Shown piece after piece: positions 1 to 32,506 of a stretch of 48,115 nucleotides of DNA (position 1 is the stretch's first letter; every line of letters begins with the position of its first letter). Both the position numbers and the translations under genes were made by a program. Below the pieces are notes generated by a model. It saw only the letters and a list, made by a program, of their open reading frames with translations, made no database searches and was not told where the DNA came from. Source of the stretch: Actinomycetota bacterium (GTDB lineage: Bacteria; Actinomycetota; UBA4738; HRBIN12); NCBI GenBank assembly GCA_005885035.1, contig VAXZ01000113.1, positions 1-48,115 on the forward strand, read 5' to 3'.

Positions 1-6
1 GGCGGC

Positions 7-9217: not shown

Positions 9218-9886
9218 GTGCTCGCCCTGCTCACCGACACGATCATCCGGCTGGTCAGCGAGCACGGATACCTGGCCATCTTCGTCCTGATGTTGCTGGA
9301 CTCGGCTTGCGTCCCGTTCCCGAGCGAGGTGACCCTCCTCTTCGGCGGAGCCCTCACCAGCACCTTGGTCGTCGGTGCGGGGCAGGAGTTGTCGCTGGTC
9401 GGGGTCGTGTTCTGGGCGATAGCCGGGACGTTGATCGGATCGTGGCTGGCGTACGGGGTGGGCTACGCGGGCGGCCGGCCCGCGATCGACCGCTTCGGCC
9501 GGTACCTGCTGATCCGACCGCACGAGATCGACCGGGCCCACGACTGGTTCGAGCGCCACGGTGAGGCCGTGGCCGCGTACGGGCGGCTCATCCCGCTTGT
9601 CCGGTCCTTCGTGAGCCTGCCGGCGGGGGTCGCGGCGATGCGGTTCTGGCGATTCACGCTGTACACCCTGGCTGGCTCGGTCATCTGGTGCGTCGGGCTC
9701 GCGTCGATCGGGCATGTGTTCGGCGATCGCTGGCGCGAGATCGAGCGGGTGATCCAGCCGTTCGCTTGGATCATCGCCGGCGTCGTCGTCGTGGCATTCG
9801 TCGTGTTCGTGTCGCGTCGCTGGGAGCAGGTCCGTCGCGAATACGCGGCGCTGGACGGCCGCGAAGATGGGCCGGCCAGCAGGTAA
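9218..9886 (+). CDS. DedA-family membrane protein
   Basis: GTG start with GGAGGA 5 nt upstream. Motifs: YLAIFVLMLLDSACVPFPSEVTLLFGG and GRLIPLVRSFVSLPAGVAAM, typical of DedA/SNARE-associated proteins. Confidence 0.85.
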   Translation: MLALLTDTIIRLVSEHGYLAIFVLMLLDSACVPFPSEVTLLFGGALTSTLVVGAGQELSLVGVVFWAIAGTLIGSWLAYGVGYAGGRPAIDRFGRYLLIRPHEIDRAHDWFERHGEAVAAYGRLIPLVRSFVSLPAGVAAMRFWRFTLYTLAGSVIWCVGLASIGHVFGDRWREIERVIQPFAWIIAGVVVVAFVVFVSRRWEQVRREYAALDGREDGPASR

Positions 9887-10404: not shown

Positions 10405-11241
10405 ATGGGAACCCTAGCGCAGCGGACGTTGGGCCGACCGTTCGGTCGCAAGGTCGTGTCCGTTGCACGAGAGCTGCGAGGCAAGGCACTGCGCGACGAC
10501 GTCGCAACCGAAGCCTCGGCGCTCACCTTCACGGCGTTCCTTTCCATCTTCCCCCTCCTCCTGTTGGCCACATCATTGGTCGGCTTCCGGCTCGAAGGCC
10601 GCGGGATGGCGTCCATCGATGAGCTCGTCTCGACGATCCCGGGGCTGACGCAACTCGTCGCGGGCCAGGCGCAGACGATCGTCGACGGCAGGTTCACGGC
10701 TGGCATCGTGGGCCTCGCCGGCCTGGTCTGGGCGGCATCGGCCCTGTCCAACCGGGCGCGCCGCGCGCTCGGCGTCATCTTCGGCCATCGAGAAACGGTC
10801 ATCGCGAGCCGGTTCGTCGCCGTCGTCGACACGTTCGTGCTCGGCGCGCTCCTGATCGTGGGCGTGACCATCGCCGGCGTCGTCACGAACGTCGCGCATG
10901 ATCGCACAGGGGGCTGGCCGGGCCTGATAGCCGCCGACATCGGGGTGTTCGCGATGCTCGTCGGCTTCTTCCTCATCGCCTACCGACTGCTGGCGCCCGG
11001 ACGGCAGGCCATCCGCGATCTCGTTCCCGGCGCGGTCGTGTGCGCGTTGGGATGGACGATCCTGCAGGGGATCGGGAGCTGGTTCGTCGCGCGCCAGGTC
11101 GCGCAGTGGTCGGCCTTGTACGGCACGATCGCGACCGTGTTCGGCGTGCTGCTGTTCCTGCGGATCGCGGCGTGGATCTTCCTAGCGGGTGCGGAGCTGT
11201 CCGCGATCCTTCGTACGCGGAGCGTTGCTCAGACGGACTGA
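10405..11241 (+). CDS. YihY/BrkB (ribonuclease BN-like) family membrane protein
   Basis: ATG 10405. N-terminal signature ASALTFTAFLSIFPLLLL. About 6 TM helices. C-terminal LFLRIAAWIFLAGAELSA. Confidence 0.8.
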   Translation: MGTLAQRTLGRPFGRKVVSVARELRGKALRDDVATEASALTFTAFLSIFPLLLLATSLVGFRLEGRGMASIDELVSTIPGLTQLVAGQAQTIVDGRFTAGIVGLAGLVWAASALSNRARRALGVIFGHRETVIASRFVAVVDTFVLGALLIVGVTIAGVVTNVAHDRTGGWPGLIAADIGVFAMLVGFFLIAYRLLAPGRQAIRDLVPGAVVCALGWTILQGIGSWFVARQVAQWSALYGTIATVFGVLLFLRIAAWIFLAGAELSAILRTRSVAQTD

Positions 11242-13568
11242 ACGGGGACCTCCGCGGCATCCCGCTCGAGCAGGAACGGGACGCTCGTGAGCAGGACGCG
11301 ATCCTCGTGCAGGAAGAGCCGCTTGATGAACAGCGCGCTCTGGTTGTGCAAGGGCAGCTGCCACCAATGGGACACGATCACCTCGGGCACCAAGACGTTG
11401 ACCATGACATGGGGGTGGACCGAGAACCGCCGCACTTCGTTCAGCATGGGACGGGTGAGGTCTCGGAACGGCGCTTCCACGATGTCGAGCGGCACGTCGA
11501 GCCCGAGGTTGAACCATGACGCCTCGAGACGGTTCGCCTGATCGGGATCGACATCGAAGTAGATCGCGCGGGTGATCGTGGCATCCAGAGTCCGGGCGTA
11601 GTTGATGGCGCGCACCGTCACGTCGTTGACCGATGAAACGAACACGAGGGTCACCGTCTTCTGGGGGATCAGGGGCTTCGAGACGTCGGCGTGCCGCGCC
11701 GGATCCTCGACCACCGGTACGTCGGTCACGACGACACCGGGCTCGCCGAGGAGCCCCGCCTTCAGGCGGACCAGCTCGTTCTCGCCCACGAGGTACCGGA
11801 CCAGACCTTGATCCACGATCTCCGGGACCATGACCGTCACGACGTCGCGGGGGCCGGGCTGCAGCCGTCGCACGTAGGCACGGACCGCCGAGGTGAGGTT
11901 GCCGGCACCGAGCGCCTCGAGCTCGGCGGTTCCCGGCTCGCAGAGCGATCGCCATCGCTCCGCCAGATCCGGCGGGACGGACCCACCGGGCGTTACGGGG
12001 TGTAACGAAGCCGGCCGGAACGAGCGCACGTACCCGAGAGCCTCCGCGGTGGATGCATCGACATCGCGCACCAGCAACACCACGTGGTTCGCTTCCAGCT
12101 CTCCCGGGCGCTCCGAACCGCGACGCGTCTGGGCCCGCACCCATGCGTAGTGCTTGTGGATCGAGTAGAAACCCGGCACCAGCAAGCCGATGATCAGGAT
12201 CGAGAGCCACGCGCCTTCGGCGAACTTCGAGATCACCACGACGATCAGCACGATCGCGGTCGTGATCGCCCCGATGATGTTGATCACGATCGATCGACGC
12301 CAACCGCGCATCGCGGCATCGCCCTTGCGACCCTCGGCCAGCCAGTGCTTGACCATGCCGGTCTGGGAAAGCGTGAACGACGTGAACACGCCCACGACGT
12401 AGAAATGGATCAGCGTGTTCAGGTCGGCATGGAAGGCGTAGATCATCGCGCACGAAAGCAGCCCCAGCACGATCACCCCGTTGGAGAAGACCAGCCGGTC
12501 GCCCCGGTTGACGAACTGGCTCGGCATGAACCGGTCCCGCGCGAGGATCGAGGCGAGCCGGGGGAAGTCCTGGTAGGCGGTGTTCGCGGCCAGGATCAGG
12601 ATCGCCGCGGTGAAGAACTGCACCACGAAGAAACCCGGCGAGGAGTTGCCGAAGATCCCGATCGCGATCTGCGCGACGACCGACCGCTGCTCGCTCGCGA
12701 CGACGCCCGGCATGTGCGTGGCGAGCCAGGAGATCCCGAGGAACATCGTGACCGCGATCGTGCCCATGATCGCGAGGGTCGCGGCCGCGTTCCTCGCCTG
12801 GGGACGCTTGAACGCCGGCACGCCGTTGGAGATCGCCTCGACGCCGGTGAGCGCGGTGGCGCCCTGAGAGAACGCCTTCAGGATCGCGAACAGGCCGACG
12901 GCCGCGGCGGTGGTTGCGGCGCCCGGGAGCAGGTCCGAGTGGACACCGACCGCCGGACAGCCACCCAGGCACCGCGCCAACCCGATCATGACGAGGACGA
13001 GGATCGAGATGACGAACCCGTAGGTGGGGATCGCGAACACCGTTCCCGACTCCCGTGCACCCCGCAGGTTCGCGAACGTCACGAGCAGCACGAACAGGAT
13101 CGACAGCAGGACCCGGTGCTCGTTCGCCCACTCGAACGCCGACCCGATAGCGAACACGCCCGCCACGACGGAGACCACCACGGTCATCATGTAGTCGAAC
13201 AGCAAGGCGGCGGCCGCGACCAGCCCGGGCAGCGTTCCGAGGTTGTCCTTGCTCACGATGTACGCACCGCCGCCTCCCGGGTAGGCGCGGACGGTCTGTC
13301 GGTACGAGCTCACGACGATCGCCATCAGCAACGCGATCGCGATCGCGATCGGCATCACGTAGGACTGTGGGTGCGACGTGACTAGGGTGAGCGCGATCAG
13401 GATCTCACCCGTGGCGTACGCGACCGAGGACAGGGCGTCGGACGCGAAGACCGGAAGCGCGAGGACCTTCGGCAGCAACGTGTGCTCCAGGTGCTGACTC
13501 GTGAACGCTCGCCCCACGAAGAGGCGCTTGATGATCGAGGTCGGGGGGGCGTTCGAAGTCGCAGCCAT
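11229..13568 (-). CDS. APC-superfamily (amino-acid-permease-like) transporter with ~300-aa cytoplasmic tail resembling two USP-like modules; paralog of 20691..23063
   Basis: ATG 13568 (an alternative GTG at 13604 would overlap the regulator gene). Conserved blocks SSVAYATGEIL, SYRQTVRAYPGGGGAYIVSKDNLG, LTGVEAISNGVPAF, LILAANTAYQDFPRLAS, GVFTSFTLSQTGM. Tail modules HVVLLVRDVDASTAEALGYV and TVTLVFVSSVNDVTVRAINYA. Confidence 0.85.
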   Translation of the reverse strand: MAATSNAPPTSIIKRLFVGRAFTSQHLEHTLLPKVLALPVFASDALSSVAYATGEILIALTLVTSHPQSYVMPIAIAIALLMAIVVSSYRQTVRAYPGGGGAYIVSKDNLGTLPGLVAAAALLFDYMMTVVVSVVAGVFAIGSAFEWANEHRVLLSILFVLLVTFANLRGARESGTVFAIPTYGFVISILVLVMIGLARCLGGCPAVGVHSDLLPGAATTAAAVGLFAILKAFSQGATALTGVEAISNGVPAFKRPQARNAAATLAIMGTIAVTMFLGISWLATHMPGVVASEQRSVVAQIAIGIFGNSSPGFFVVQFFTAAILILAANTAYQDFPRLASILARDRFMPSQFVNRGDRLVFSNGVIVLGLLSCAMIYAFHADLNTLIHFYVVGVFTSFTLSQTGMVKHWLAEGRKGDAAMRGWRRSIVINIIGAITTAIVLIVVVISKFAEGAWLSILIIGLLVPGFYSIHKHYAWVRAQTRRGSERPGELEANHVVLLVRDVDASTAEALGYVRSFRPASLHPVTPGGSVPPDLAERWRSLCEPGTAELEALGAGNLTSAVRAYVRRLQPGPRDVVTVMVPEIVDQGLVRYLVGENELVRLKAGLLGEPGVVVTDVPVVEDPARHADVSKPLIPQKTVTLVFVSSVNDVTVRAINYARTLDATITRAIYFDVDPDQANRLEASWFNLGLDVPLDIVEAPFRDLTRPMLNEVRRFSVHPHVMVNVLVPEVIVSHWWQLPLHNQSALFIKRLFLHEDRVLLTSVPFLLERDAAEVPVQSV

Positions 13569-13590
13569 GGTTGCTGATGCTACGTGTCGC

Positions 13591-14274
13591 TCAGGCTGGT
13601 TCACCCACCCAGCGGTAGCCGACGCCCGGCTCGGTGACGATCAGGGCAGGCGAGGACGCGTCGTCGCCCAGCTTCTTGCGGAGCGCGCGGATGTAGGTGC
13701 GGAGATAGGTCGTCTCGGTCCCGTATCCCTGACCCCAGACCCGGCGGAGGAGCCACTGGTGCGTGAGGAGCTTCCCCGGATTGGAGACGAGCGCCTCTAA
13801 TAAGGAGTATTCGGTCGGGGTCACGTGCAGCTGCTCGCCGTCCAGGGTGACCAGGCGACGTGCGAGGTCGATCTCCAGGCCGCCGTACCGGAGGGTCGGT
13901 TGGGGGGGCTCGTCCGGGCCCGCGCGGCGGAGCGCCGCGCGGGCCCGGGCGAGCAACTCCTCCATGGCGAACGGCTTGGTCACGTAGTCGTCGGCTCCGG
14001 CGTCGAGCGCCGCAACCTTGTCCGACTGCGCCTCACGCACCGACAGGATGATCACCGGAACGTCGGAGAACCCGCGCACCCTGCGGATCACCTCGGTGCC
14101 GTCCATGTCCGGGAGCCCGAGGTCCAGCAGCACCAAGTCGGGCTGCTGGTCCGCCGATGCGACCACGCCCTCCTCCCCCGTGCCGACGGTCGCGACCTCG
14201 TACCCGTGCGCCTCCAGGCTCGTTCGAAGCGCCCGCCGGATCTGGGGTTCGTCATCGATGACCAGGACCTTCAC
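13591..14274 (-). CDS. OmpR/KdpE-type winged-helix response regulator
   Basis: The GTG start overlaps the kinase stop (GTGA). Motifs: VLVIDDEPQI, DLVLLDLGLPDMDG, VTKPF. Winged helix: LTPTEYSLLEAL...TEPGVGYRW. Confidence 0.9.
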   Translation of the reverse strand: MKVLVIDDEPQIRRALRTSLEAHGYEVATVGTGEEGVVASADQQPDLVLLDLGLPDMDGTEVIRRVRGFSDVPVIILSVREAQSDKVAALDAGADDYVTKPFAMEELLARARAALRRAGPDEPPQPTLRYGGLEIDLARRLVTLDGEQLHVTPTEYSLLEALVSNPGKLLTHQWLLRRVWGQGYGTETTYLRTYIRALRKKLGDDASSPALIVTEPGVGYRWVGEPA

Positions 14275-15707
14275 AGCACCGTCTCCTCGAGCGGGACGTC
14301 GACCACCATCGCGGTCCCGCCTCCCGTCGTCTCCTCGATGCGGATGCGCCCGCCGTGGGCCGTCACGATGGCGCGCGCGATCGCGAGGCCGAGGCCGCTC
14401 CCCGAGGACTCAGGGCTCTCGCGGCCGCGGTAGAAGGCTTCGAACACCTTCTCACGCTCCTCGGGCTTGATGCCCGGGCCTTCGTCGGAGACGCGGACAC
14501 GGACCGCGTCGCGCGTCTCGCTGACGTGGATCCGGATCGTCCCGCCCCTCGGCGAATGCCGCGCGGCGTTCTCCAGCAGGTTCGTCAACACCTGGTCGAG
14601 CTGCACCGGGTCCGCCGGAACCTCGGGCAGGTCGGGGGCGAGCTGCAGCTCGACCGCGAAGTCGGCGAGGAGGCGATGCATACGGGCCACGACCGCTTCC
14701 GCGACCTCGTCGACGGCCGTCGGCACCCGCTTCGGGATCAACGCGCCCGCGCGGATCTTCGCCAGATCGAGGATGTTCCCGACCAATCGGTTCAGCCGGT
14801 CGGTCTCCTCGAGGATCGTTGTGAGCAGATCCCGCTGCTGGATCGCATCGTGGATCGCGCTCGCGTCCAGCAGGCTGGTCACGCCCGCTTTGATCGAGGC
14901 GAGCGGGGTTCGCAGATCGTGCGTGACCGAAGAGAACATCGCGGCGCGGAGTTGGTTCGTCTCGGCGTCCAGCTGCGCCAGGCGCGCTCGAGCGTCCAGC
15001 CGCGCGCGGTCCAGGGCGACCGCCGCCTGGCGGGTCGCGGCCTCCAGGAGCAATCGCTCATCGCGCGTGAACGGGCGTCTGCCCTCCGGGCGTTCCGCGA
15101 TCAAGGTGCCGAGCGGGATGTTCGACACGACGACGGGAATCACCTCGGTCGGCCCCCCGCGGGGCACCCCCGGGCGAACGGCCTTCGCCTCGATCTCCTG
15201 GCCGTCGAGCGTCACCGACACTTGACAGGACGCGAGTCCGAGCGGCTCCAGGAGCACCTGGACGAACTCGTCGAGCACCCGGTCGGGGACGTCTCCGGAC
15301 AGGAGCTTCGCCGACAAGAAGGCGAGGAGCCGTGCCTCACGTTCGCGCCGGCTCGCGCGGTCGCGCTCATCGGCCGCGTTGCCGACCACCAGGCCCACGA
15401 CGACGGCGATCGCCAGGAACACGACCGCGGCGATCAGATCGCGGAGCTGTTCGAAGCCGAACACGCGCTGGGGCGATTCCACGATCGGAAGGGCGATCGA
15501 GGCGAGCAAGGCGGCCACGACGCCAGCCCACAGGCCGCCGCTGACCGCGGCGATGGTCACGGAGAGGATGAAGATCGCGACGCCCGCGCCCTGGAGCTGG
15601 GACGTCAGCAGGGCCAGGACGGTCCCGGCGAGCGTGGCGAGGAAGCCGATGCCGATCGCACGCAGCGTCAAACGGGCGAGACGACCGGGAGGACCTTCGA
15701 CGACCAC
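14271..15707 (-). CDS. sensor histidine kinase resembling the C-terminal half of KdpD (DUF4118-type membrane region, GAF-like region, HisKA, HATPase)
   Basis: GTG 15707. Three to four TM helices at the N-terminus. H-box SVTHDLRTPLASIKAGVTSL. Boxes NLLENAARHSP, DEGPGI, GSGLGLAIA. It lacks the KdpD N-terminal P-loop/Usp sensor domains. Confidence 0.85.
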   Translation of the reverse strand: MVVEGPPGRLARLTLRAIGIGFLATLAGTVLALLTSQLQGAGVAIFILSVTIAAVSGGLWAGVVAALLASIALPIVESPQRVFGFEQLRDLIAAVVFLAIAVVVGLVVGNAADERDRASRREREARLLAFLSAKLLSGDVPDRVLDEFVQVLLEPLGLASCQVSVTLDGQEIEAKAVRPGVPRGGPTEVIPVVVSNIPLGTLIAERPEGRRPFTRDERLLLEAATRQAAVALDRARLDARARLAQLDAETNQLRAAMFSSVTHDLRTPLASIKAGVTSLLDASAIHDAIQQRDLLTTILEETDRLNRLVGNILDLAKIRAGALIPKRVPTAVDEVAEAVVARMHRLLADFAVELQLAPDLPEVPADPVQLDQVLTNLLENAARHSPRGGTIRIHVSETRDAVRVRVSDEGPGIKPEEREKVFEAFYRGRESPESSGSGLGLAIARAIVTAHGGRIRIEETTGGGTAMVVDVPLEETVL

Positions 15708-15713
15708 GGCCGA

Positions 15714-15803
15714 ACGCTACCGCCCGCGCGATGCCCGTTCACGCCTGGGGCGCGTTCACGACATCTTCACGCCGCCCGCAGCTTCCTTCACGCCCCCCTC
15801 ACG
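15714..15803. promoter_or_regulatory. candidate control region: TAGCGT -10 box (minus strand, 15719-15714) 6 nt from the kinase GTG, plus five TTCACG-type direct repeats
   Basis: TTCACG at 15738, 15755, 15766 and 15787, and CTCACG at 15798 (consensus TTCACGCC). The last four are spaced 11, 21 and 11 bp apart. The same spacing pattern occurs at 20599-20646. Confidence 0.4.
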
Positions 15804-15928
15804 GCCGATGCCGGAGCCTACTCACCGGAAAGAGGTTTCCTGCCGGACGGGCCGCGTGGCCGTCACCCCTAGGCGGTTCGCCGGGCAGGATGGGTACATC
15901 CACCGCTTTCCTCCGAGCCCGTCTTCGG

Positions 15929-15956
15929 GGCCGGCAGCTCCCTCCAGCTGCCGGCC
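15929..15956 (+). promoter_or_regulatory. perfect 11-bp GC-rich stem-loop in the divergent intergenic region upstream of trkA
   Basis: GGCCGGCAGCT-ccctcc-AGCTGCCGGCC, followed by tcaagacatttct. No converging gene exists for it to terminate. Confidence 0.35.
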
Positions 15957-16052
15957 TCAAGACATTTCTGGGGTTGTTCGCTGCGACGACCGTCTGCGCC
16001 CGAAGCGGTCACGTCATGTCATCGATAGAGCCCGGCGGTACGCTTCTGCCTC

Positions 16053-16715
16053 ATGCACGTCCTGATCATGGGTTGCGGGCGGGTCGGCTCCGAGCTTTCG
16101 CTCGCCTTGCTCGAGGGCGGGCACGACGTGACCATCATCGACAAGAACCCGGAGGCGTTCTGGCGCTATCCACCCGGTGAGGGCGCTCGTCAGATGGTGG
16201 GCCTCGGCTTCGACCGCGAGCTGCTGGAGGAGGCGGGCATCAAGGATGCCGACGCCTTCATCGCTGTTTCCTCCGGAGACAATTCGAACATCGTCTCCGC
16301 ACGAGTGGCGCTCGAGCATTTCCACGTGCCCAAGGTGATCGCCCGGATCTACGACCCGCGCCGTGCCGAGATCTACGGACGGCTCAACATACCGACCGTC
16401 GCAACCACGACCTGGGGCATCAAGCAGATCCAGCTGATGCTTCTGCACGACCGCGAGGAGATCCGCGAAAGCCTGGGCGGCGGCGAGATCCTCCGCGTGC
16501 GGGTCCCGGTCCCAGCGCACCTGATCGGCAAGCCAGCCAACACCCTGAACGTCGAAGGCAAGATCCTGGTCGCGGGGGTCTCCCGCGGCGGCACGGGCTT
16601 CCTCCCCACGCCCGATAGCACCCTGCAGGCGGGCGATTACCTCGTCGTGATGATGGTCAAGGATGGTCTGGAGATGCTTGACCAGCAGCTCGAACCCGCG
16701 TCGGAGCATCACTGA
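16053..16715 (+). CDS. trkA: TrkA-type RCK protein (NAD-binding TrkA_N plus TrkA_C)
   Basis: MHVLIMGCGRVGSELSLALLEGGHDVTIIDKN Rossmann motif. C-terminal RCK_C-like region (GKILVAGVSRGG...LQAGDYLVVM). TACGCT lies 8 nt upstream of the ATG. Confidence 0.9.
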   Translation: MHVLIMGCGRVGSELSLALLEGGHDVTIIDKNPEAFWRYPPGEGARQMVGLGFDRELLEEAGIKDADAFIAVSSGDNSNIVSARVALEHFHVPKVIARIYDPRRAEIYGRLNIPTVATTTWGIKQIQLMLLHDREEIRESLGGGEILRVRVPVPAHLIGKPANTLNVEGKILVAGVSRGGTGFLPTPDSTLQAGDYLVVMMVKDGLEMLDQQLEPASEHH

Positions 16716-17380
16716 TGCGGGTCGTGGTCACCGGCGGCGGGGCGATCGGGCGCCACCTGTCGGCGGATCTGGTGGAGCGCGGACACGACGTGACGTTGAT
16801 CGAGCAGCACCGTTCCGTCGTGGACCGGCTCCGCGAGGAGATCCCAGACGTGAAGGTGATGCTCGGCGACGCGTGTGAGCCGCGCATCCTCGACGACGCG
16901 CACCTCTCCGATGCCGACGTCGTCGTCGCGGCGACCGGCGACGACGAGGACAACCTGGTCACGTCCCTGCTGGCGAAGCAGGAGTTCGCCGTGCCACGGG
17001 TGCTCGCCCGGGTGAACCATCCCGGCAACGAGTGGCTGTTCAACGAGCAGTGGGGCGTGGACCAAGCGGTGTCACCGCCGCACATGCTCACCGCGATGGT
17101 CGAGGAGGCCGTGACGACGGGCGACCTCGTCCGGCTCCTCCGGCTGGAGGGCGGTCGCGCCTCGATCGTCGAGACCAAGCTCACGACCGCATCCCCGGCG
17201 ACCGGCAAGGCGCTCTACGAGCTTCGTCTGCCGCCGGACTCCACGATCGTGGCGGTCCTCCGGGAGGGTCACGTCGTGATCCCCCAGCCGGAAACGGTGC
17301 TCGCAGCGGGCGATGAGCTGGTCGCGTTGGCGGCGCCGGAATCGGAGCTGACGCTCCGTGAGGCGATCGTCGGCGACTGA
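16715..17380 (+). CDS. trkA: TrkA-type RCK protein, second copy
   Basis: TGATG overlap with the upstream trkA. MRVVVTGGGAIGRHLSADLVERGHDVTLIEQ. C-terminal IVAVLREGHVVIPQPETVLAAGDELVAL. Confidence 0.9.
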   Translation: MRVVVTGGGAIGRHLSADLVERGHDVTLIEQHRSVVDRLREEIPDVKVMLGDACEPRILDDAHLSDADVVVAATGDDEDNLVTSLLAKQEFAVPRVLARVNHPGNEWLFNEQWGVDQAVSPPHMLTAMVEEAVTTGDLVRLLRLEGGRASIVETKLTTASPATGKALYELRLPPDSTIVAVLREGHVVIPQPETVLAAGDELVALAAPESELTLREAIVGD

Positions 17381-17386
17381 CCCTCC

Positions 17387-18073
17387 TCAGTCGCCCGGTT
17401 CGAACCGGTAGCCCATGCCGGGCTCGGTGATGAAGTAGCGGGGATGTGACGGCTCCGGCTCGAGTTTCCGTCGGATCTGGGCCATGTACACCCGCAGGTA
17501 GTTCGTCTCCTCCTCGTACCGCGGACCCCAGACCTCCTGCAGGAGCTGGCGCTGACTGACCAGCCTCCCCGGATGACGGACGAGGACCTCGACGAGGTGC
17601 CACTCGGTGGGCGTGAGGCGGACGGCCGTCCTGTCAGCCGCGACCACCTTCCTCGCGGCGAGGTCCACGGTGAACGCCGAGGTGCGGACGACGGCTTCCC
17701 CATCGTCGGACGAGACCGCCCGCCGCTCGGATGCCCGCACCCGCGCGAGCAGCTCCCCCATGCCGAACGGTTTCGTGACGTAGTCGTCGGCCCCGGCGTC
17801 CAGCGCGTTGACCTTCTCGGACTCCTGCTCGCGCGCCGACAGCACGATGATCGGAACCGCGGTCCACGTCCGGAGGCCCCGGATCACGTCGACACCGTCG
17901 ATCCCGGGCAACCCGAGGTCCACGATCACGACGTCGGGGCGACGCCGCGCCGCCAGATCGAGCGCCGCCTCACCGTCCGGCGCCGTGTCCACGTCGTAGC
18001 CGCGGGCGACCAGGTTGGTCTTCAGTCCGCGGAGTATCTGCGGCTCGTCATCGACGACGAGCACCCTCGTCAT
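17387..18073 (-). CDS. kdpE: KdpE-type OmpR-family response regulator
   Basis: ATGA overlap with kdpD. Motifs: VLVVDDEPQILRGL, DVVIVDLGLPGIDG, VTKPF. Winged helix: LTPTEWHLVEVL...TEPGMGYRF. Confidence 0.9.
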   Translation of the reverse strand: MTRVLVVDDEPQILRGLKTNLVARGYDVDTAPDGEAALDLAARRRPDVVIVDLGLPGIDGVDVIRGLRTWTAVPIIVLSAREQESEKVNALDAGADDYVTKPFGMGELLARVRASERRAVSSDDGEAVVRTSAFTVDLAARKVVAADRTAVRLTPTEWHLVEVLVRHPGRLVSQRQLLQEVWGPRYEEETNYLRVYMAQIRRKLEPEPSHPRYFITEPGMGYRFEPGD

Positions 18074-20580
18074 GTCGACGCCGCCCGGAAGGCGAGCACC
18101 ATCGTGAGCCCGCCACCGGGCGTGTCTTCGACCGAGAGCTCACCGTCCATCGCCTCGACGAAGCCCTTCGCGACGGCGAGCCCGAGCCCGATCCCGTCGC
18201 GGCTCGTGCCGTCGCCCAGCCGCTGGAAGGGACGGAACATCCGCTCGCGGTCCTGTGGCCCGACGCCGGGCCCGCGGTCGATCACCCGCAGCTCCACGCG
18301 CCCTACCGCCGCGGATCCGTGGATCCTCACCGGACAGTCGGGCGGAGCCAGCCCCGACGCGTTGGCGACGATGTTCGCGATCGCCCGCTCGAGGAGACCG
18401 GGATCGACGTCGATCCGTGGCAACGTCTCCGGCACCTCGACGACCAGCCCGCGGCCACCGTCCGGAAGGCTGGCGAGCGCCTTCGGCACCACCTCGTCGA
18501 ACCCGACGACATCACGCACCAGTTTCAGGGCCCCGACCTGAAGGCGGCTCATGTCCAGCAGGTTCGCGACGAGGCCGGTGAGCCGGTCGGTCTCGTCCTC
18601 GATCGTGCCCAGGAACAGCGCCATCTCCTCGGGCGACCAGGCGACCTCATCGTCGCGGAGGCTCGAGACCGACGCCTTGATCGACGCGAGCGGGGTCCGC
18701 AGATCGTGCGACACGGCGGCGAGGATCGCGGTCCGGAGCGCGTCCGCCTCGGCGCGCGCCGCGGACGCCGCGGCCTCCTGTGCGAGCGCTCGGCCACGGA
18801 CCGCGAGCCCGAGTTGCCCGGCGAACGCGGACAGCAGCTGCAACCGATCGGCCGGCAGGGGGCTCCCCCGGAGCGCGAGCACGGTGTCGTTGCCGAGCTG
18901 CACGACCTGCCCGGCCTCCTCGGGGGTGTCGGGCGCGTCGGTGCCCGCGGCCGCCTCTCGGATCCACCCACTCTCGTGGCCGCCTTCGGGATCGCGATCC
19001 TCCCGGCGGAGCACCGAGACGGCATCCACACCGAACGTCGTCCGAGCGTGCTCGACGAGCTCGGGGAGGGGGTCTCCTTCAGCCGCCACCCGCGCGGTGA
19101 GGCGCGCGAGCGCCTCCGCCTCCGTGCCCCGGCGCTGTGCCTCCGCCCGCTGCCTCGCCTCGCGGTCGACCAGGATGCTCACGCTCGCCGCGACGACGAC
19201 GAACACGACGAGGGCCACCACATCCTCGGGGTTGGCGACCTTCCACGTGTGGACGGGGGGCGTGAAGAACCAGTTGATCAGGAGCGCCGAGACCACCGCC
19301 GCCGGGATCGCCGGTCGCAGACCGCCGCCGAACGCGATCCCGATCACGACCGTTAGGTACAGGAGCATGATGGTGGAAAGCGCCATCTGACGGTCGAGCG
19401 CGGCGACGGCGGTGGTCAGACCGACGAGGACGACCGCCCCGGCGAGGGCCGCGATGACCTGCCGGTCGCTCGAGAGACCGGTGACGACGCGGCCCGTCAC
19501 GCGGGGACGTTGGGACGTCGGCTCGTGCGAGATGACATGCACGTCGATCGAACCGGAGTCCCGGATCACGTCGAGGACGACCGAGCGCCCGAAGGACCCC
19601 CGGAACCGCGAACGACGACCGGCCCCCAGCACGACCTGCGTGATGCCTTCGACGCGAGCCAGGTCGAGGATCGCGTCCGGCACTCGCGCCCCGACCACCT
19701 CCTCGAAGCGGCCACCGACCTGCCGCACGAGCTCGCGGACGGCCTCGAGGTGGGGCGCGTCATCCCGGCCCGCGTCCGGGATGACGTGCACGGCGATCAG
19801 CTCGCCGCCGCGCCGCGCGGCCATGCGCGCGGCGCGGCGGACCACCGGTTCGTCCTCCGGACGACCCTGCACCGCGACGAGGATCCGTTCGCGGGCCGTC
19901 GCCGGCTCGGATCCCCGAGCCGGCGACGGTCCCGCTCGCAGCTCCTCGTCGACCCGGTCGGCCATCCACACGAGCGACAGCTCGCGCAGCCGCGCGAGGT
20001 TCTCTTCACGGAACGTTCGCGCCAGGGCGGCGTCCATCCGCTCGGGAGGGAAGACGTTCCCGTGTGCCAGCCGGCGCTGGAGTGCCTGCGGGGTCATGTC
20101 CACGAGCTCCAGCTGATCCGCGTTCCGCACGAGCGCGTCGGGGACCGAGTCGGCCGGGGCCTCGCTCGTGATCCCCTCGATCACATCGTGCAGTGACTCG
20201 AGGTGATGGATGTTGACCGTCGAGATCACATCGATGCCGGCGGCGAGGAGCTCCTCCACGTCTTGCCAACGATGCGCGTTGCGCGACCCGGCGGCGTTCG
20301 TGTGCGCGAGCTCGTCGACCACCGCGACCTCCGGATGACGGGCCAGCACCGCATCGACGTCCATCTCTTCGGTGTGAGTGCCATCGCCATCGCTCCGGCG
20401 AGGCGCGACCTCCAGACCCCGGGTCTGCGCCGCCACCTCCTGTCGACCATGCGTGCCGACGACGGCGAGCAGCACGTCCGTCCCGCGAGCACGCCGACGA
20501 CGAGCCTCGTCGAGCATCGCGTACGTCTTGCCGACGCCCGGCGCGTACCCGACGTAGATCCTCAGCCGACCGCGCTCCAC
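18070..20580 (-). CDS. kdpD: full-length KdpD-type sensor kinase (KdpD N-terminal domain, Usp, 4-TM DUF4118, GAF-like, HisKA, HATPase)
   Basis: GTG 20580. N-terminal motifs: LRIYVGYAPGVGKTYAMLDEA, DELAHTN, ISTVNIHHLESL. Usp block: ILVAVQGRPEDEPVVRRAARMA. H-box SHDLRTPLASIKASVSSL. Also GIGLGLAVAKG. Confidence 0.95.
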   Translation of the reverse strand: MERGRLRIYVGYAPGVGKTYAMLDEARRRRARGTDVLLAVVGTHGRQEVAAQTRGLEVAPRRSDGDGTHTEEMDVDAVLARHPEVAVVDELAHTNAAGSRNAHRWQDVEELLAAGIDVISTVNIHHLESLHDVIEGITSEAPADSVPDALVRNADQLELVDMTPQALQRRLAHGNVFPPERMDAALARTFREENLARLRELSLVWMADRVDEELRAGPSPARGSEPATARERILVAVQGRPEDEPVVRRAARMAARRGGELIAVHVIPDAGRDDAPHLEAVRELVRQVGGRFEEVVGARVPDAILDLARVEGITQVVLGAGRRSRFRGSFGRSVVLDVIRDSGSIDVHVISHEPTSQRPRVTGRVVTGLSSDRQVIAALAGAVVLVGLTTAVAALDRQMALSTIMLLYLTVVIGIAFGGGLRPAIPAAVVSALLINWFFTPPVHTWKVANPEDVVALVVFVVVAASVSILVDREARQRAEAQRRGTEAEALARLTARVAAEGDPLPELVEHARTTFGVDAVSVLRREDRDPEGGHESGWIREAAAGTDAPDTPEEAGQVVQLGNDTVLALRGSPLPADRLQLLSAFAGQLGLAVRGRALAQEAAASAARAEADALRTAILAAVSHDLRTPLASIKASVSSLRDDEVAWSPEEMALFLGTIEDETDRLTGLVANLLDMSRLQVGALKLVRDVVGFDEVVPKALASLPDGGRGLVVEVPETLPRIDVDPGLLERAIANIVANASGLAPPDCPVRIHGSAAVGRVELRVIDRGPGVGPQDRERMFRPFQRLGDGTSRDGIGLGLAVAKGFVEAMDGELSVEDTPGGGLTMVLAFRAAST

Positions 20581-20586
20581 GCATCG

Positions 20587-20683
20587 AGGCTAGCCCTCTT
20601 GACGTGATCTTGACGTCATCACGCCATCCCTGACGGAACCTTGATGCCTCCGCGGCGGGAGCAGCCCCTCCGCTCCCTAGCGT
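20587..20683. promoter_or_regulatory. candidate divergent control region: TAGCCT -10 (minus strand) 6 nt from the kdpD GTG, phased TTGACG-type direct repeats, and TAGCGT -10 (plus strand) 7 nt from the permease ATG
   Basis: Plus-strand repeats: TTGACG at 20599 and 20610, ATCACG at 20618, CTGACG at 20630, TTGATG at 20641. Spacing is 11, ~20 and 11 bp. The minus-strand TAGCCT reads as aggcta at 20587-20592. TAGCGT is at 20678-20683. Confidence 0.4.
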
Positions 20684-20690
20684 GAGATGC

Positions 20691-23063
20691 ATGGAGCGCG
20701 ACGTGGATCTCGGGACCGGGTACGCGTTCAAGCGCCTGCTGCTGGGACGGCCCCTCGCCACGTCCCGTCTGGAGCACGAGCGCCTGGGTCGGCCGACCGC
20801 GCTGGCGGTCTTCTCGTCCGACAACATGACCTCGGTCGCCTACGCGACCGAGGAGATCCTCCGCGTCCTGATCCCGGCGGTAGGGATCCTGGCGTTCTCC
20901 TACGTGCTCCCGATCTCGGCGGTGATCGTCCTGATCGAGGCCATCTTGATCTTCTCGTACCGCCAGACGATCAAGGCGTACCCGACGGCCGGCGGGGCCT
21001 ACATCGTCACGAAGGACAACCTCGGGCTGCTGCCGGCACAGCTCGCCGGCGTCGCGCTTCTGGTCGATTACGTCCTGACCGTGAGCGTCTCGACGGCTGC
21101 CGGCGTCCAGGCGATCAGCTCGGTCGTTCCCCTCGGCGTCCCGCTCCGCGTCGTGTTCTCTCTGGCGTTCGTCTGGATGATCGCGTACGGGAACCTCCTG
21201 GGCGTGCGGGAGTCGGGCAAGATCTTCGCCGCGCCCACGTATCTGTTCATCGTCAGCTTGGGACTCACATGCGTGATGGGGATCTACGAGGTGTTGTCCG
21301 GTCATCTCCACGCGTTCCCGATCCAGCAGCAGGTGGCGCACGGAGGCCTCTCGCCGTTCGCGGGGGCGGTCACGGTCTTCATCCTGCTCCGCGCGTTCGC
21401 CTCCGGCGGAGCCGCGGTGACGGGGGTCGAGGCGATCTCGAACGGGGTCCCGGCGTTCCGTAAGCCTGAGTGGCGCAACGCCCAGATCACCCTGGTGTGG
21501 ATGGGTCTGATCCTGGGTTCGTCGTTCCTCGCGGTGTCCTTCCTGGCCTCGCGGCTGCAGGTGATCCCGATCGCTGACGAGAGCAAGTCGGTCCTGGCGA
21601 CCATCGCGGAGGCTGTCTACGGCACCGGCGCGGTGGGCCGGCTCCTCTTCCTCGTGCTCCAGATCGGCACGACCCTCATCCTGATCCTCGCCGCCAACAC
21701 GTCGTTCGCCGACTTCCCTCGGTTGGCCAGCTTCCACGCGGGTGATGCCTTCATGCCGCGGCAGCTGACGAAGCGCGGGCACCGGCTGGTGTTCTCGAAC
21801 GGGATCGTGGCGCTGGCCGCCGCCGCCAGCCTGGTGATCGTCGCGTTCAGCGCGAGCGTCACGAAGATGATCCCGCTCTACGCCCTGGGGGTGTTCACCT
21901 CGTTCACCCTCTCGCAGAGCGGGATGGCCAAGCGCCACCTGCGCCTACGGGAGAAGGGGTGGAAGTTCGGACTGTTCGTGAACGGTCTCGGCGCGATCGC
22001 GACCCTGGTCGTGGCGATCGTGATCGCGATCGTCAAGTTCGCGGGGGGCGCCTGGATCGTGATGGTGTTCGTGCCGATCCTCGTCGCGCTCCTGGTCCGC
22101 GTGAACAAGACCTACGAGGCGGAGGACGAGCAGCTCGTGATCGGCCCGGAGGACCGAGCGAACGGCGGCGCCACGCGGACCGACCACACCGCGCTCGTGC
22201 TGGTGGACGAGCTCGACGCCGATACCTTGCACGCCGCGCAGTACGCACTGACGATCCGCCCGACGCGCGCCACGGCGCTGCACCTGGGCGGTCGCGACCC
22301 GGAACTCGAGGCTGCGTGGAAGGACGCCGGTCTGCGAATCCCGCTCGTCGCCATCCCCGGTGACGAGCGGCCCGGCCGGGCGATCGCGCGCTACCTCCGC
22401 GGGCTCGGCGTGACCGGGGAGCAGGTCACCGTCATCCTCCCCGCGCCCGCCGACGAGCCCTTCCTCGCCCGGCTCCGTCGGATGCACGCGTGGTCCGGGC
22501 TCGCCGAGTCCCTCCGCGATCTACCGAACGTCGGCGTAGTGATCGTTCGCGCGCACGGCGCTACCGCCGATGCGGCGCAGCACCATCGCCTGCAGCTCTC
22601 CCCGCGCCGGCGTCACGTGGCGCTGATCCTGGTCGAGGACCTGGACCGGGCGACCCTCAAGGCCTCGAGGTACGCAAGGGGGATCCAGGCGCTCGAGGTG
22701 CGGGCCATCCACGCCGCGAGCGATCCCGATCGCGCCAGGATGTTGATCGACCAGTGGATCGCCTTCGGGTACCTCGCCGGGATCCCGCTCGACGTCGAGG
22801 AATGCAACGATCGGAACATCGAACGCAGCCTGCGACGCTACGTGTCGCGCTTCGAGGACGGAACGACCGAGGTCACGCTGATCCTCCCGCGCAGACACTT
22901 CCCGAAGCGTCGCCACCTCTTGCTGCACGATCGGACGAGCCGCAGGATCGCCGGTGCCTTCGCGGAAGAGCCCCACGTGGACGTCGTCGTCGTCCCGTAC
23001 CACCTGGGCGCCGGCCGCGAGCATCGGATGAGAAAGCTCGCACCGGCCGCCGCTACGCGGTGA
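20691..23063 (+). CDS. APC-superfamily (amino-acid-permease-like) transporter with tandem USP-like cytoplasmic tail; paralog of 11229..13568
   Basis: In-frame ATG 20691 (the ORF opens at GTG 20682). Blocks TSVAYATEEIL, SYRQTIKAYPTAGGAYIVTKDNLG, VTGVEAISNGVPAF, LILAANTSFADFPRLAS, GVFTSFTLSQSGM. Tail modules TALVLVDELDADTLHAAQYA and HVALILVEDLDRATLKASRYA. Confidence 0.85.
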   Translation: MERDVDLGTGYAFKRLLLGRPLATSRLEHERLGRPTALAVFSSDNMTSVAYATEEILRVLIPAVGILAFSYVLPISAVIVLIEAILIFSYRQTIKAYPTAGGAYIVTKDNLGLLPAQLAGVALLVDYVLTVSVSTAAGVQAISSVVPLGVPLRVVFSLAFVWMIAYGNLLGVRESGKIFAAPTYLFIVSLGLTCVMGIYEVLSGHLHAFPIQQQVAHGGLSPFAGAVTVFILLRAFASGGAAVTGVEAISNGVPAFRKPEWRNAQITLVWMGLILGSSFLAVSFLASRLQVIPIADESKSVLATIAEAVYGTGAVGRLLFLVLQIGTTLILILAANTSFADFPRLASFHAGDAFMPRQLTKRGHRLVFSNGIVALAAAASLVIVAFSASVTKMIPLYALGVFTSFTLSQSGMAKRHLRLREKGWKFGLFVNGLGAIATLVVAIVIAIVKFAGGAWIVMVFVPILVALLVRVNKTYEAEDEQLVIGPEDRANGGATRTDHTALVLVDELDADTLHAAQYALTIRPTRATALHLGGRDPELEAAWKDAGLRIPLVAIPGDERPGRAIARYLRGLGVTGEQVTVILPAPADEPFLARLRRMHAWSGLAESLRDLPNVGVVIVRAHGATADAAQHHRLQLSPRRRHVALILVEDLDRATLKASRYARGIQALEVRAIHAASDPDRARMLIDQWIAFGYLAGIPLDVEECNDRNIERSLRRYVSRFEDGTTEVTLILPRRHFPKRRHLLLHDRTSRRIAGAFAEEPHVDVVVVPYHLGAGREHRMRKLAPAAATR

Positions 23064-23412
23064 ACTCCAGGCGCGGGTTGATCATCTGGACGCCGCCGCG
23101 CTGCTCGCCCAGCACCCCTTCGACGACCACCTTCGTGCCCAGGCCGAGCCCGCCGATCGCCCGGCGTCCCATGAATCGGATCACGACCTCGCCCGTCCCG
23201 TCGGACACCACGGCTTCGAGCGACTCGTTGTCCTTCATCGGGAACACGGTGAGCCTCCGGATCACGCCGGCGATCTTGACCCGTTGCCGCATCGGCGCGT
23301 CGGCGATGCGGACCGAGCCGGGCACCCGGTCCGCCCATTCGCGGATCTCGGACTCGAGGCGCGTCTCGTCGCTCTCGGTGAGACGCCGAAGCAAACGACG
23401 GAACCCTCCCAT
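23053..23412 (-). CDS. small OB-fold (tRNA_anti-like) domain protein
   Basis: ATG 23412, 119 aa. [59 protein letters not shown] is a typical OB-barrel pattern. Its 3' end overlaps the converging permease by 11 nt. Confidence 0.7.
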
Positions 23413-27198: not shown

Positions 27199-27370
27199 CG
27201 CCGGCCTCACCTACCCAGTCAGGATCCATGCCGACCAGTCTTCCCGGCTCGCCTGCGTGACGGTGCATCGTACCCCGCAACGGATGCCAGGAGCGTCCTC
27301 GGGTGGCTTCACGAACTCGCAACGCGCAGATGCCAAGAACGGGCGAGACCCCTGGTAGCCTCGTCGCGTT

Positions 27371-30093: not shown

Positions 30094-30212
30094 GCTCGCA
30101 GGGGTGCTAGGGTCTCGCAACCGATGAGCCGCGCGGAGGCGACCCAGCGATCCGGTCTCCTCTCCGAGATGGCCCGTCGGGTGACGTCGCCGGACCCTCG
30201 TAGCCTGGGCCG

Positions 30213-32483: not shown

Positions 32484-32506
32484 CCGGCGCGGACTAGTCT
32501 GCGGCC

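Follow-up and report, generated by a model that had tools for sequence, protein, structure and literature searches.

The window, i.e., the whole stretch of DNA analyzed here, is one entire 48-kb contig of an actinomycetotal bacterium and contains a cluster of permease and regulatory genes. Three genes on the minus strand encode the truncated KdpD-type histidine kinase HK1 (14271-15707; 478 aa; DUF4118 membrane domain, weak GAF, HisKA, and HATPase), the OmpR-family response regulator RR1, a KdpE paralogue (13591-14274; Response_reg and Trans_reg_C), and the permease APC1 (11229-13604; 791 aa; Pfam AA_permease_2). The plus strand carries the CeoB/CeoC-like single RCK protein TrkA1 (16053-16715) and a second single RCK protein, TrkA2 (16715-17380), both composed of TrkA_N and TrkA_C. 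They are followed on the minus strand by a KdpE-type response regulator (17387-18073; Pfam/NCBIfam) and a full-length KdpD (18070-20580; KdpD N-domain, Usp, DUF4118, HisKA, and HATPase), and the second permease, APC2 (20682-23063; 793 aa; AA_permease_2), is encoded on the plus strand. Genes for a small soluble OB-fold protein (23053-23412; 119 aa; weak tRNA_anti-codon OB match) and a membrane-integral pyrophosphatase (23453-25705; H_PPase E = 5e-256 and a full-length NCBIfam match) adjoin on the minus strand.

ORF calls and Pfam/NCBIfam matches agreed with the gene and domain map of the original prediction throughout, and the conserved sequence blocks that it had quoted for the two permeases are present in both proteins, which are 39% identical from end to end. 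The cluster had also been described as mirror-like, which is correct for the gene order but not for the DNA, where the sole inverted match comprises 66 nt and sits inside the most conserved coding block. Same-strand neighbors overlap by 4 nt (HK1/RR1 and KdpD/KdpE), 14 nt (RR1/APC1), and 1 nt (TrkA1/TrkA2), and the overlap of the RR1 stop with the APC1 start suggests an operon. The database gene call for APC1 comprises 779 aa, placing the true start probably 12 codons downstream, and APC2 probably starts with the ATG at 20691, since its homologues comprise 790 aa.

In a phmmer search with APC1, the K+ importer KimA of Bacillus subtilis (YdaO; PDB 6S3K, 8B70) was the only match among PDB sequences (E = 3e-118), with residues 25 to 509 of APC1 aligned to residues 5 to 477 of KimA and residues 648 to 777 aligned to residues 472 to 603. 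The full-length APC1 model matched KimA with Foldseek E values of 2e-31 to 4e-28 and a TM score of 0.84 to chain 6s3k_A (ca. 37% identity over a 12-TM LeuT-fold core); weaker matches were obtained for cation-chloride cotransporters (ca. 1e-13) and amino acid transporters such as LAT1 and AdiC (ca. 1e-8). All eight residues that coordinate or gate K+ in KimA (D36, Y43, D117, T121, S125, T230, E233, and Y377) are retained in APC1 and APC2 as well as in essentially all of 237 homologues. APC1 and APC2 are true homologues of the KimA (KUP-type) K+/H+ symporter and not mere analogues, the homology extending over both the membrane and the C-terminal domain, and they are almost certainly K+ transporters, as the original prediction had proposed in saying that the permeases translocate K+. 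The profile search and KimA comparison that it had recommended returned AA_permease_2 for both proteins in addition to the KimA match of APC1.

This Pfam match and the source labels "amino acid transporter" and "APC family permease" could be taken to mean that the permeases carry amino acids or polyamines and that the K+-type regulators are present for another reason. Such a function is very improbable, because KimA falls into the same Pfam family and was itself misannotated for a long time, no other PDB sequence was matched, every K+ site residue is retained, and amino acid transporters are much poorer structural matches. The class of amino acid/polyamine APC permeases was rejected accordingly, as the closest characterized relative is KimA and LAT1 and AdiC are reached only at the level of fold. 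Two statements of the original prediction need revision in the light of the KimA homology. Speaking of an uncharacterized uptake system was an overstatement, since the transporter is of the KimA type, the structure of KimA has been solved, and KimA-like proteins have already been cataloged in Streptomyces on the basis of homology (PMC10117811). KdpF/A/B/C, TrkH, KtrB, and Kup had been reported as missing; Pfam searches of all sizeable ORFs and tblastn detected no KdpA, KdpB, KdpC, or TrkH in the 48-kb window, but the permeases themselves are of the KUP type, given that KimA was assigned to the KUP family by Tascon et al. (PMC6994465). Because the window represents a single contig, the absence of a gene from it has no bearing on the genome.

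The permeases differ from KimA in their cytoplasmic part. KimA (607 aa) has one C-terminal alpha/beta domain after TM12, whereas the ca. 780-aa permeases of the window end in a tail of about 300 aa with two modules (residues ca. 500 to 645 and ca. 646 to 780 of APC1). As the two halves align with each other (24 to 31% identity; E = 5e-7 to 2e-9), the tail has arisen by internal duplication, and with the KimA cytoplasmic domain as the best PDB match of a tail-only model (root mean square deviation of 2.0 A), it is the KimA cytoplasmic domain duplicated in tandem. The AF2 model of the tail consists of two beta/alpha domains (pLDDT of 89.6). It also resembles the tandem universal stress protein UspE (5cb0_B; E = 1.7e-5; TM scores of 0.47/0.48), which ranks behind the KimA domain, and the C-terminal domains of cation-chloride cotransporters (Foldseek E of ca. 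4e-4). The cotransporters (NKCC, KCC, and NCC) likewise combine an APC-fold membrane domain with two alpha/beta (USP/HUP-like) subdomains, but the membrane domain of the window's proteins is of the KimA type, and the likeness of the tail to tandem USPs and cotransporter domains is one of fold only, with 9 to 13% identity. Of the previously postulated "two USP-like modules," the number of modules and their tandem alpha/beta fold were confirmed, but neither permease was matched by the Usp profile of Pfam, and the USP ATP motif G-x2-G-x9-G-[ST] was not found in the tails.

A candidate c-di-AMP pocket appears to be partly conserved at the sequence level. In KimA it is formed by R337, H579, N580, Q581, and S582, of which the histidine is invariant. 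APC1 has retained the His-Asn-Gln-Ser stretch and, like the rest of its group, shows a serine at the position of R337, while APC2 has the arginine and reads HDRT in place of HNQS (NQS 580 to 582 exchanged for DRT). In contrast to the KimA locus, a ydaO/c-di-AMP riboswitch is absent, as Rfam yielded no match. Instead, Kdp-type two-component systems appear to control the expression of the permease genes, which adjoin a TrkA pair or share an operon with one.

Both two-component systems are related to KdpD/KdpE. HK1 is 33% identical to residues 390 to 829 of the full-length KdpD, which possesses all five domains of the KdpD architecture, whereas HK1 is devoid of the first two, i.e., no KdpD N-terminal or Usp domain was detected with Pfam/NCBIfam. 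This 478-aa architecture recurs in the related locus L081 and in many others. KdpE was the best NCBIfam match both for RR1 (237 bits) and for the regulator next to KdpD (254 bits), each score being below the curated cutoff of 325, and the two regulators are 50% identical to each other. As in Escherichia coli, the domain order of the full-length KdpD is accompanied by a KdpE-type regulator; unlike the E. coli system, the window harbors a second, N-terminally truncated KdpD paralogue in an operon with a KimA-type gene and lacks kdpFABC.

A conserved cis-element, TT(C/G)ACG-N5-TT(C/G)ACG, is present in both divergent promoters of the cluster. Cis-element 1 (15738-15803) comprises TTCACG at 15738, 15755, 15766, and 15787 and CTCACG at 15798, and these direct repeats, which lie roughly 30 to 95 bp upstream of the HK1 start, include two pairs with 11-bp spacing that begin 32 bp from each other. 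Cis-element 2 (20599-20646) lies in the divergent kdpD/APC2 region of about 100 bp and consists of two 11-bp-spaced pairs, with TTGACG at 20599 and 20610, CTGACG at 20630, and TTGATG at 20641. Direct repeats with an 11-bp period are expected of operators of OmpR/PhoB-family regulators and are shared with the E. coli Kdp system, but the putative half-site of the window is richer in GC. The only two exact matches in the window are located in the divergent promoters, and six matches with at most one mismatch were observed compared to 0.70 expected, a post hoc statistic, as the motif was first spotted here. Independent support is provided by the related loci (1.28 Mb), in which all 18 exact matches fall into the equivalent intergenic regions between the kinase and APC or TrkA genes and all 18 are antiparallel to the kinase gene. 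The repeats of cis-element 1 are invariant across five aligned orthologous intergenic regions, and TTGACG-type repeats occupy the position of cis-element 2 in seven loci (L017, L020, L022, L026, L046, L064, and L070).

Conservation of the arrangement was assessed in two surveys of 80 loci each, one anchored on the permease and one on TrkA1. In the former, kinase, regulator, and permease genes are co-directional in this order in 17 loci, the permease gene is divergent from the kinase gene in 34, and a response regulator is encoded within 10 kb in 34 of the 44 well-flanked loci. A co-directional order of permease, TrkA1, and TrkA2 genes was found in 14 loci with gaps of 20 to 93 bp, and a divergent one was found in 9. 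In the TrkA1-anchored survey, a KimA-like gene is located at most 500 bp upstream in 40 of 60 loci, and 17 loci combine a divergent TrkA pair with a single-tail permease. The gene order of the cluster is conserved in L081, whose APC2 is 91% identical. Adjacency of the permease to Kdp-type two-component systems and the TrkA pair, for which the original prediction had recommended a survey, is thus strongly conserved and occurs in many Actinomycetota, with 17 HK-RR-KimA-like and 14 KimA-like-TrkA1-TrkA2 operons.

The permeases had been thought to be wired to the Kdp regulators instead of KdpFABC, which is not supported, since kdpABC directly adjoins the same cluster in four relatives (L002, L009, L092, and L121) and the KdpD of the window has retained its N-terminal domain, whose E. 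coli counterpart phosphorylates KdpB (PMC11018627). The same two observations speak for the idea that KdpD/KdpE controls a canonical kdpFABC operon elsewhere and that its place beside APC2 is a lineage-specific rearrangement devoid of regulatory meaning. In line with this, L044 has the gene order of the window without kdpDE, which suggests that kdpDE came to lie between trkA2 and APC2 by insertion. A meaningless rearrangement is nevertheless rather unlikely, considering the two pairs of TTGACG-type repeats within the short kdpD/APC2 region, the presence of the motif in L020, L026, L064, and L070, where it separates genes for Kdp-type kinases from KimA-like ones, and the maintenance of the arrangement in L081; moreover, control of kdpFABC and of APC2 can coexist.

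With respect to the TrkA pair, the matches of TrkA1 include TrkA (4g65/4j9u) and TM1088A/B, and for TrkA2 a match to Vibrio TrkA (4j9u; N-terminal half; E = 1e-46) was obtained. The two proteins are 28% identical. They share the TrkA_N and TrkA_C composition with the RCK subunits of TrkAH and KtrAB and the adjacent encoding of two different subunits with the TM1088A/B ring, but in contrast to TrkAH/KtrAB, no TrkH or KtrB gene lies beside them and none was found in the 80 TrkA-anchored loci. In particular, TrkH was not detected in any of these 80 loci and does not adjoin any TrkA pair that is at least 41% identical to that of the window. The TrkH query is functional, as it detected TrkH in two loci of Acidimicrobiia (L055 and L062), the only ones among the 80 permease-anchored loci, where it lies beside more distant TrkA pairs.

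From the gene neighborhood, we infer that the permease may be gated by TrkA, and it is conceivable, if tentative, that the CeoB/CeoC-type split TrkA pairs of Actinomycetota lack TrkH because the KimA-type APC-fold symporter encoded next to them serves as their partner in the membrane. The position of a KimA-like gene immediately beside TrkA1 in two-thirds of the loci (in 13 of them co-directional with short gaps) argues for this partnership, as do the complete lack of TrkH in the TrkA-anchored survey and the report that Streptomyces venezuelae has two KimA-like proteins but no TrkH, KtrB, or KtrD (PMC10117811). A slightly less probable explanation is that TrkA1/TrkA2 gates a membrane protein encoded elsewhere, e.g., TrkH/KtrB, an RCK-less K+ channel, or a cation ATPase, and that the adjacency merely reflects a co-regulated K+ island. 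It is backed by the function of Bacillus KimA without an RCK partner (PMC6994465) and by the TrkA-TrkA-TrkH genes that adjoin kdpDE and a KimA-like gene in L055 and L062. Some of the TrkA pairs without a KimA-like gene are found only beside an RNA methyltransferase or beside a P-type ATPase; in about nine loci of lower GC content TrkA is paired with a type-II P-type ATPase, and in three loci no transporter gene is adjacent. Furthermore, TnSeq co-essentiality in Mycobacterium tuberculosis clusters ceoB and ceoC with Rv2694c and the channel-like Rv3200c, while Rv2690c is not among the listed members of this module. We take the gene order in M. tuberculosis to be Rv2690c-ceoB-ceoC, which would resemble the window in placing two single-RCK TrkA-like genes beside an APC-type membrane protein; the window differs in its two permeases with duplicated tails and the two Kdp-type two-component systems in the cluster. 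No membrane subunit of CeoBC is named in the mycobacterial literature surveyed.

Taken together, the locus is probably a K+ homeostasis island built on two KimA-type (KUP-family, APC/LeuT-fold) K+/H+ symporters under Kdp/TrkA control. Operon structure and cis-elements suggest that HK1, which would keep the K+-sensing membrane and cytoplasmic parts of KdpD, forms an autoregulated operon with RR1 and APC1. Phosphorylated RR1 might bind TTCACG-N5-TTCACG upstream of HK1 and thereby provide more transporter under K+ limitation, and the full-length KdpD/KdpE might act via the TTGACG repeats in the divergent kdpD/APC2 promoter and probably also controls a kdpFABC operon at another genomic site. Based on the gene neighborhood, TrkA1 and TrkA2 could assemble into a hetero-oligomeric RCK ring in the manner of a TrkA split into two halves, and this ring would modulate the KimA-type permease in response to nucleotides; the ancestral partner in the operon would be APC2. 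The duplicated tail may act as an additional brake that responds to a ligand, possibly c-di-AMP.

Thousands of such proteins are labeled "amino acid transporter" in databases, and regarding them as KimA-type K+ importers corrects the inventory of K+ transport for a large part of the Actinomycetota. Judging from the conserved operons, a KimA-type transporter would be subject to two layers of control not reported so far, namely, a TrkA pair and a truncated KdpD/KdpE paralogue that possesses an operator of its own. If the TrkA pair is indeed partnered with the adjacent permease, the regulation of a LeuT-fold secondary transporter by an RCK ring would be a previously undescribed pairing, the KimA-type permease would be the K+-translocating subunit still lacking from the mycobacterial "Trk" system, and a Kdp-type kinase devoid of the N-terminal domain directed at KdpB would then serve this transporter as its dedicated transcriptional sensor. 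A physical link to TrkA would account for the contribution of CeoB/CeoC-type proteins to K+ uptake in actinobacteria without TrkH, among them pathogens in which ceoBC affects host colonization (PMC6375644), and would provide a directly testable candidate for the CeoB/CeoC membrane subunit.

The surveys also revealed a conserved neighborhood at the APC2 end of the cluster. The OB-fold gene, a neighbor of the TrkA pair and KimA-like genes, is present in 22 of the 80 permease-anchored and 38 of the 80 TrkA1-anchored loci, and the gene for the membrane-integral pyrophosphatase, which contains a motif of 10 residues, adjoins the OB-fold gene in 16 loci as a conserved cluster neighbor.

The two permeases, APC1 (11229-13604, minus strand; AA_permease_2) and APC2 (20682-23063, plus strand), which share 39% identity over their full length, are homologues of the KimA-type (KUP-family) K+/H+ symporter. 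A comparison of APC1 with all PDB sequences returned a single match, KimA of Bacillus subtilis (6S3K; E = 3e-118), with residues 25-509 aligning with KimA 5-477 and residues 648-777 with the cytoplasmic domain of KimA (472-603). KimA coordinates or gates K+ through eight residues (D36, Y43, D117, T121, S125, T230, E233, and Y377), and every one of them is kept in both permeases and in essentially all members of a set of 237 homologues from both orthologue groups. Structurally, KimA is the nearest match (E 2e-31 to 4e-28; 6s3k_A, TM 0.84, 37% identity) of the AlphaFold model built for full-length APC1 (pLDDT 78), whereas the matches of this model to eukaryotic cation-chloride cotransporters (E about 1e-13) and amino-acid transporters (E about 1e-8) are much weaker. 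Based on homology and the conserved site residues, both permeases would import K+ together with protons. The label "amino acid transporter" on nearly all database copies is a family-level mislabel, and KimA itself was formerly mislabelled in the same way. The original prediction that the permeases translocate K+ was thus right in substance, but the novelty of the uptake system was overstated: the transporter type is already known, since two "KimA-like" proteins of Streptomyces have been listed by homology in a review (PMC10117811).

The C-terminal tails of about 300 residues are internal tandem duplications, the halves of which align with 24-31% identity (E 5e-7 to 2e-9). A tail-only model (pLDDT 89.6) consists of two beta/alpha modules and matches best the cytoplasmic domain of KimA (E 1.2e-7, rmsd 2.0 A), followed by the tandem USP UspE (E 1.7e-5, TM about 0.47) and, in third rank, by the C-terminal domains of NCC, KCC, and NKCC, which have two lobes. 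The proposal of two USP-like modules therefore holds at the level of the fold, but by descent the modules are duplicated KimA domains, and neither a Pfam Usp match nor the USP ATP motif was found in the tails. In KimA, the cytoplasmic domain and R337 bind the inhibitor c-di-AMP (PMC10284832). Judged by the aligned residues, this pocket is partially conserved: the second module of APC1 retains His-Asn-Gln-Ser with Ser at the R337 position, and APC2 retains the Arg with His-Asp-Arg-Thr in place of His-Asn-Gln-Ser. Ligand control through the tail is plausible.

The predicted gene and domain map of the cluster was borne out by ORF listing and Pfam/NCBIfam scans of the window (G+C content of ~69%). 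On the minus strand, APC1 is preceded by RR1, a KdpE-paralogous regulator (13591-14274; 50% identical to KdpE), and by HK1, a truncated KdpD-type kinase (14271-15707; DUF4118-HisKA-HATPase, lacking the KdpD N-terminal and Usp domains; 33% identical to KdpD residues 390-829). The RCK proteins TrkA1 (16053-16715) and TrkA2 (16715-17380), both of TrkA_N+TrkA_C type and 28% identical, are encoded on the plus strand, and KdpE (17387-18073) and the full-length KdpD (18070-20580) on the minus strand lie between them and APC2. Start/stop overlaps (HK1/RR1, 4 nt; RR1/APC1, 14 nt; TrkA1/TrkA2, 1 nt; KdpD/KdpE, 4 nt) imply three operons. The "mirror" character ascribed to the cluster stands as gene order but not at the DNA level, where a recent inverted duplication was rejected because inverted similarity is confined to one 66-nt, 77% match inside the most strongly conserved coding block.

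The wiring is conserved. Scanning 185,579 species genomes with a pattern yielded at least 594 relatives, and the window proteins were mapped by tblastn on the best 80 of these permease-anchored loci. Among these 80, a KimA-like gene follows kinase and response regulator genes co-directionally in 17 (gaps of -11 to 179 bp) and is oriented divergently to a Kdp-type kinase gene in 34; it precedes TrkA1 and TrkA2 co-directionally in 14 (gaps of 20-93 bp) and is divergent from them in 9. Within 10 kb, a response regulator was present in 34/44 and the TrkA pair in 16/44 well-flanked loci, so that the postulated association of K+-type regulation with these permeases extends well beyond the window. 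The gene order of locus L081 (APC2 91% identical) is exactly that of the window. L044 shares this order except that kdpDE is missing, which makes kdpDE look inserted between trkA2 and APC2.

Direct repeats are located upstream of HK1 (TTCACG at 15738, 15755, 15766, and 15787; CTCACG at 15798) and in the ~100-bp spacer between kdpD and APC2 (TTGACG at 20599 and 20610, CTGACG at 20630, TTGATG at 20641). Both sets comprise two 11-bp-spaced pairs with about three helical turns between them, an arrangement to be expected of OmpR/PhoB-family dimers. In the window, exact matches to TTSACG-N5-TTSACG occur at these two sites only, and six matches arise when up to one mismatch is allowed (0.70 expected); as the pattern was derived from the window itself, the real test lies in the related loci. 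In 1.28 Mb of these, 18/18 exact matches were found in the equivalent HK-APC or HK-TrkA intergenic regions, all antiparallel to the kinase gene, and when five orthologous promoters are aligned, the invariant columns are the repeats. The TTCACG form occurs with RR1-like and the TTGACG form with KdpE-like regulators, a pairing that points to two related circuits insulated from each other. A relaxed scan of the relatives' kdpFABC and kdpD promoters turned up nothing better than partial matches carrying 1-2 mismatches (e.g., L023, L009, L045, and L062), which we take as weak support. Scanning for sigma-70 promoters and terminators revealed no signal exceeding the shuffled background. A ydaO-type c-di-AMP riboswitch was rejected, as Rfam contained no riboswitch match (window at gathering threshold; 15650-16100 at E<=1). 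A hairpin ~100 bp upstream of trkA1, formed by a perfect 10-bp inverted repeat (GCCGGCAGCT...AGCTGCCGGC, about 15930-15957), was set aside as well: orthologous regions do not conserve it, and Rfam gave no match to it.

As predicted, neither KdpA/B/C nor TrkH is encoded in the 48,115-bp window, which was searched in full and appears to be an entire metagenomic contig of an uncultured Actinomycetota bacterium. The reading that the permeases stand "instead of KdpFABC" went too far, since relatives carry kdpABC inside the same island as the KimA-like/Kdp-regulator cluster; a kdpFABC operon elsewhere is therefore probably still a target of the full-length KdpDE, which probably also acts on APC2 via the shared divergent promoter. 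HK1 corresponds to KdpD without its N-terminal domain, the membrane part and the C-terminal part being retained; in Escherichia coli the missing domain is a serine kinase for KdpB (PMC11018627), and its absence would fit a dedicated sensor for a transporter other than Kdp. When K+ is scarce, the operon of HK1, RR1, and APC1 would then autoinduce via its TTCACG repeats. In the close relative L002 (13446-21234), and similarly in L009, KdpD is split into a KdpD-N+Usp-only protein, resembling the short non-kinase KdpD forms discussed previously (PMC11018627), and a separate DUF4118 histidine kinase; these parts and KdpE flank kdpCBA directly beside the KimA-like/TrkA cluster.

TrkA1 and TrkA2, which would form a mixed RCK ring, are similar to the halves of a tandem TrkA and to the TM1088A/B pair. 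Conserved operons with KimA-like genes and the absence of a nearby TrkH suggest that this ring modulates the symporter, the least certain step of the mechanism. In a reverse survey of 80 metagenome loci anchored on TrkA1, a KimA-like gene of double-tail or single-tail form was found within 500 bp in 40/60 loci with usable upstream sequence (13 co-directional, 27 divergent), and an E. coli TrkH query had no match in the 80 loci. The same operons and missing TrkH speak against a service of the pair to a partner encoded elsewhere, which we consider the less probable reading, albeit one with arguments in its favor: some TrkA pairs of the window's type are not adjacent to a KimA-like gene, and KimA of Bacillus works without an RCK partner (PMC6994465). 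Moreover, the TnSeq co-essentiality module of Mycobacterium tuberculosis unites ceoB and ceoC with Rv2694c and Rv3200c, without Rv2690c, and K+ uptake persists in a Trk/Kdp triple knockout of this species, which fits an additional, independently active transporter. CeoBC is "the Trk system" in the mycobacterial literature searched, where no membrane subunit is named, and Streptomyces venezuelae was reported to lack TrkH, KtrB, and KtrD (PMC10117811). In our literature search, KimA-type permeases were not connected with CeoB/TrkA or KdpE in any paper. The cluster makes it possible to test directly which membrane protein partners the CeoB/CeoC-type proteins. What it adds to the known KimA type is a duplicated regulatory domain, a place in conserved operons that also hold a truncated KdpD/KdpE paralogue and a TrkA pair without TrkH, and a newly defined putative operator.

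The E. coli TrkH query was positive in two Acidimicrobiia loci, whose TrkA pairs are merely 33-38% identical to that of the window; here, TrkA-TrkA-TrkH adjoins kdpDE and a KimA-like gene (L062, 5028-8010; L055, 16678-19601). This arrangement may be the ancestral state, with other Actinomycetota having lost TrkH and retained the TrkA pair. In about nine lower-GC TrkA1-anchored loci, TrkA is paired with a type-II P-type ATPase, e.g., in L118 (5382-9274; also L112, L117, L138, L139, and L156), where the pair (41-49% identity to that of the window) immediately follows an E1-E2_ATPase, Cation_ATPase_C gene in the KimA-like gene's place. An RNA methyltransferase is the sole retained neighbour in three further, actinobacterial loci (L137, 1910-3202; L144, 104-1399; L157, 6547-7938, with a DUF3710 protein downstream), the pair being divergent from the TRAM/RNA methyltransferase gene with no permease between, as if the KimA-like gene had been lost from a common neighbourhood.

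A soluble OB-fold protein of 119 aa (23053-23412, minus strand), which may be the equivalent of M. tuberculosis Rv2694c, recurs as a neighbour of the TrkA pair (22 of the best 80 permease-anchored and 38/80 TrkA-anchored loci; e.g., L012, 3466-3822, and L044, 8427-8777); informative PDB or NCBIfam matches were not found for it. Its gene is adjoined in 16 related loci by that of a membrane-integral pyrophosphatase (window 23453-25705, minus strand), whose 10-letter motif has Lys and Thr at the positions that, under the Belogurov-Lahti rule, mark K+-independent enzymes; speculatively, its proton pumping could support K+/H+ symport. Further membrane proteins flank the island, i.e., a Na_Ca_ex cation exchanger (29050-30498) and a DUF2254 protein (25810-27210) on the minus strand and a YihY/BrkB protein (10405-11241), found near the cluster again in 7 related loci, and a DedA/VTT protein (9218-9886) on the plus strand. 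The contig start truncates a gene (1-1497, plus strand) for a HisKA_3-type (NarL-class) histidine kinase that matches GAF weakly and is unrelated to the Kdp-type kinases. A fused urease gamma/beta gene and a urease alpha gene (32498-34781, plus strand) are located downstream of an MrfA/Hrq1-type helicase (30204-32483).
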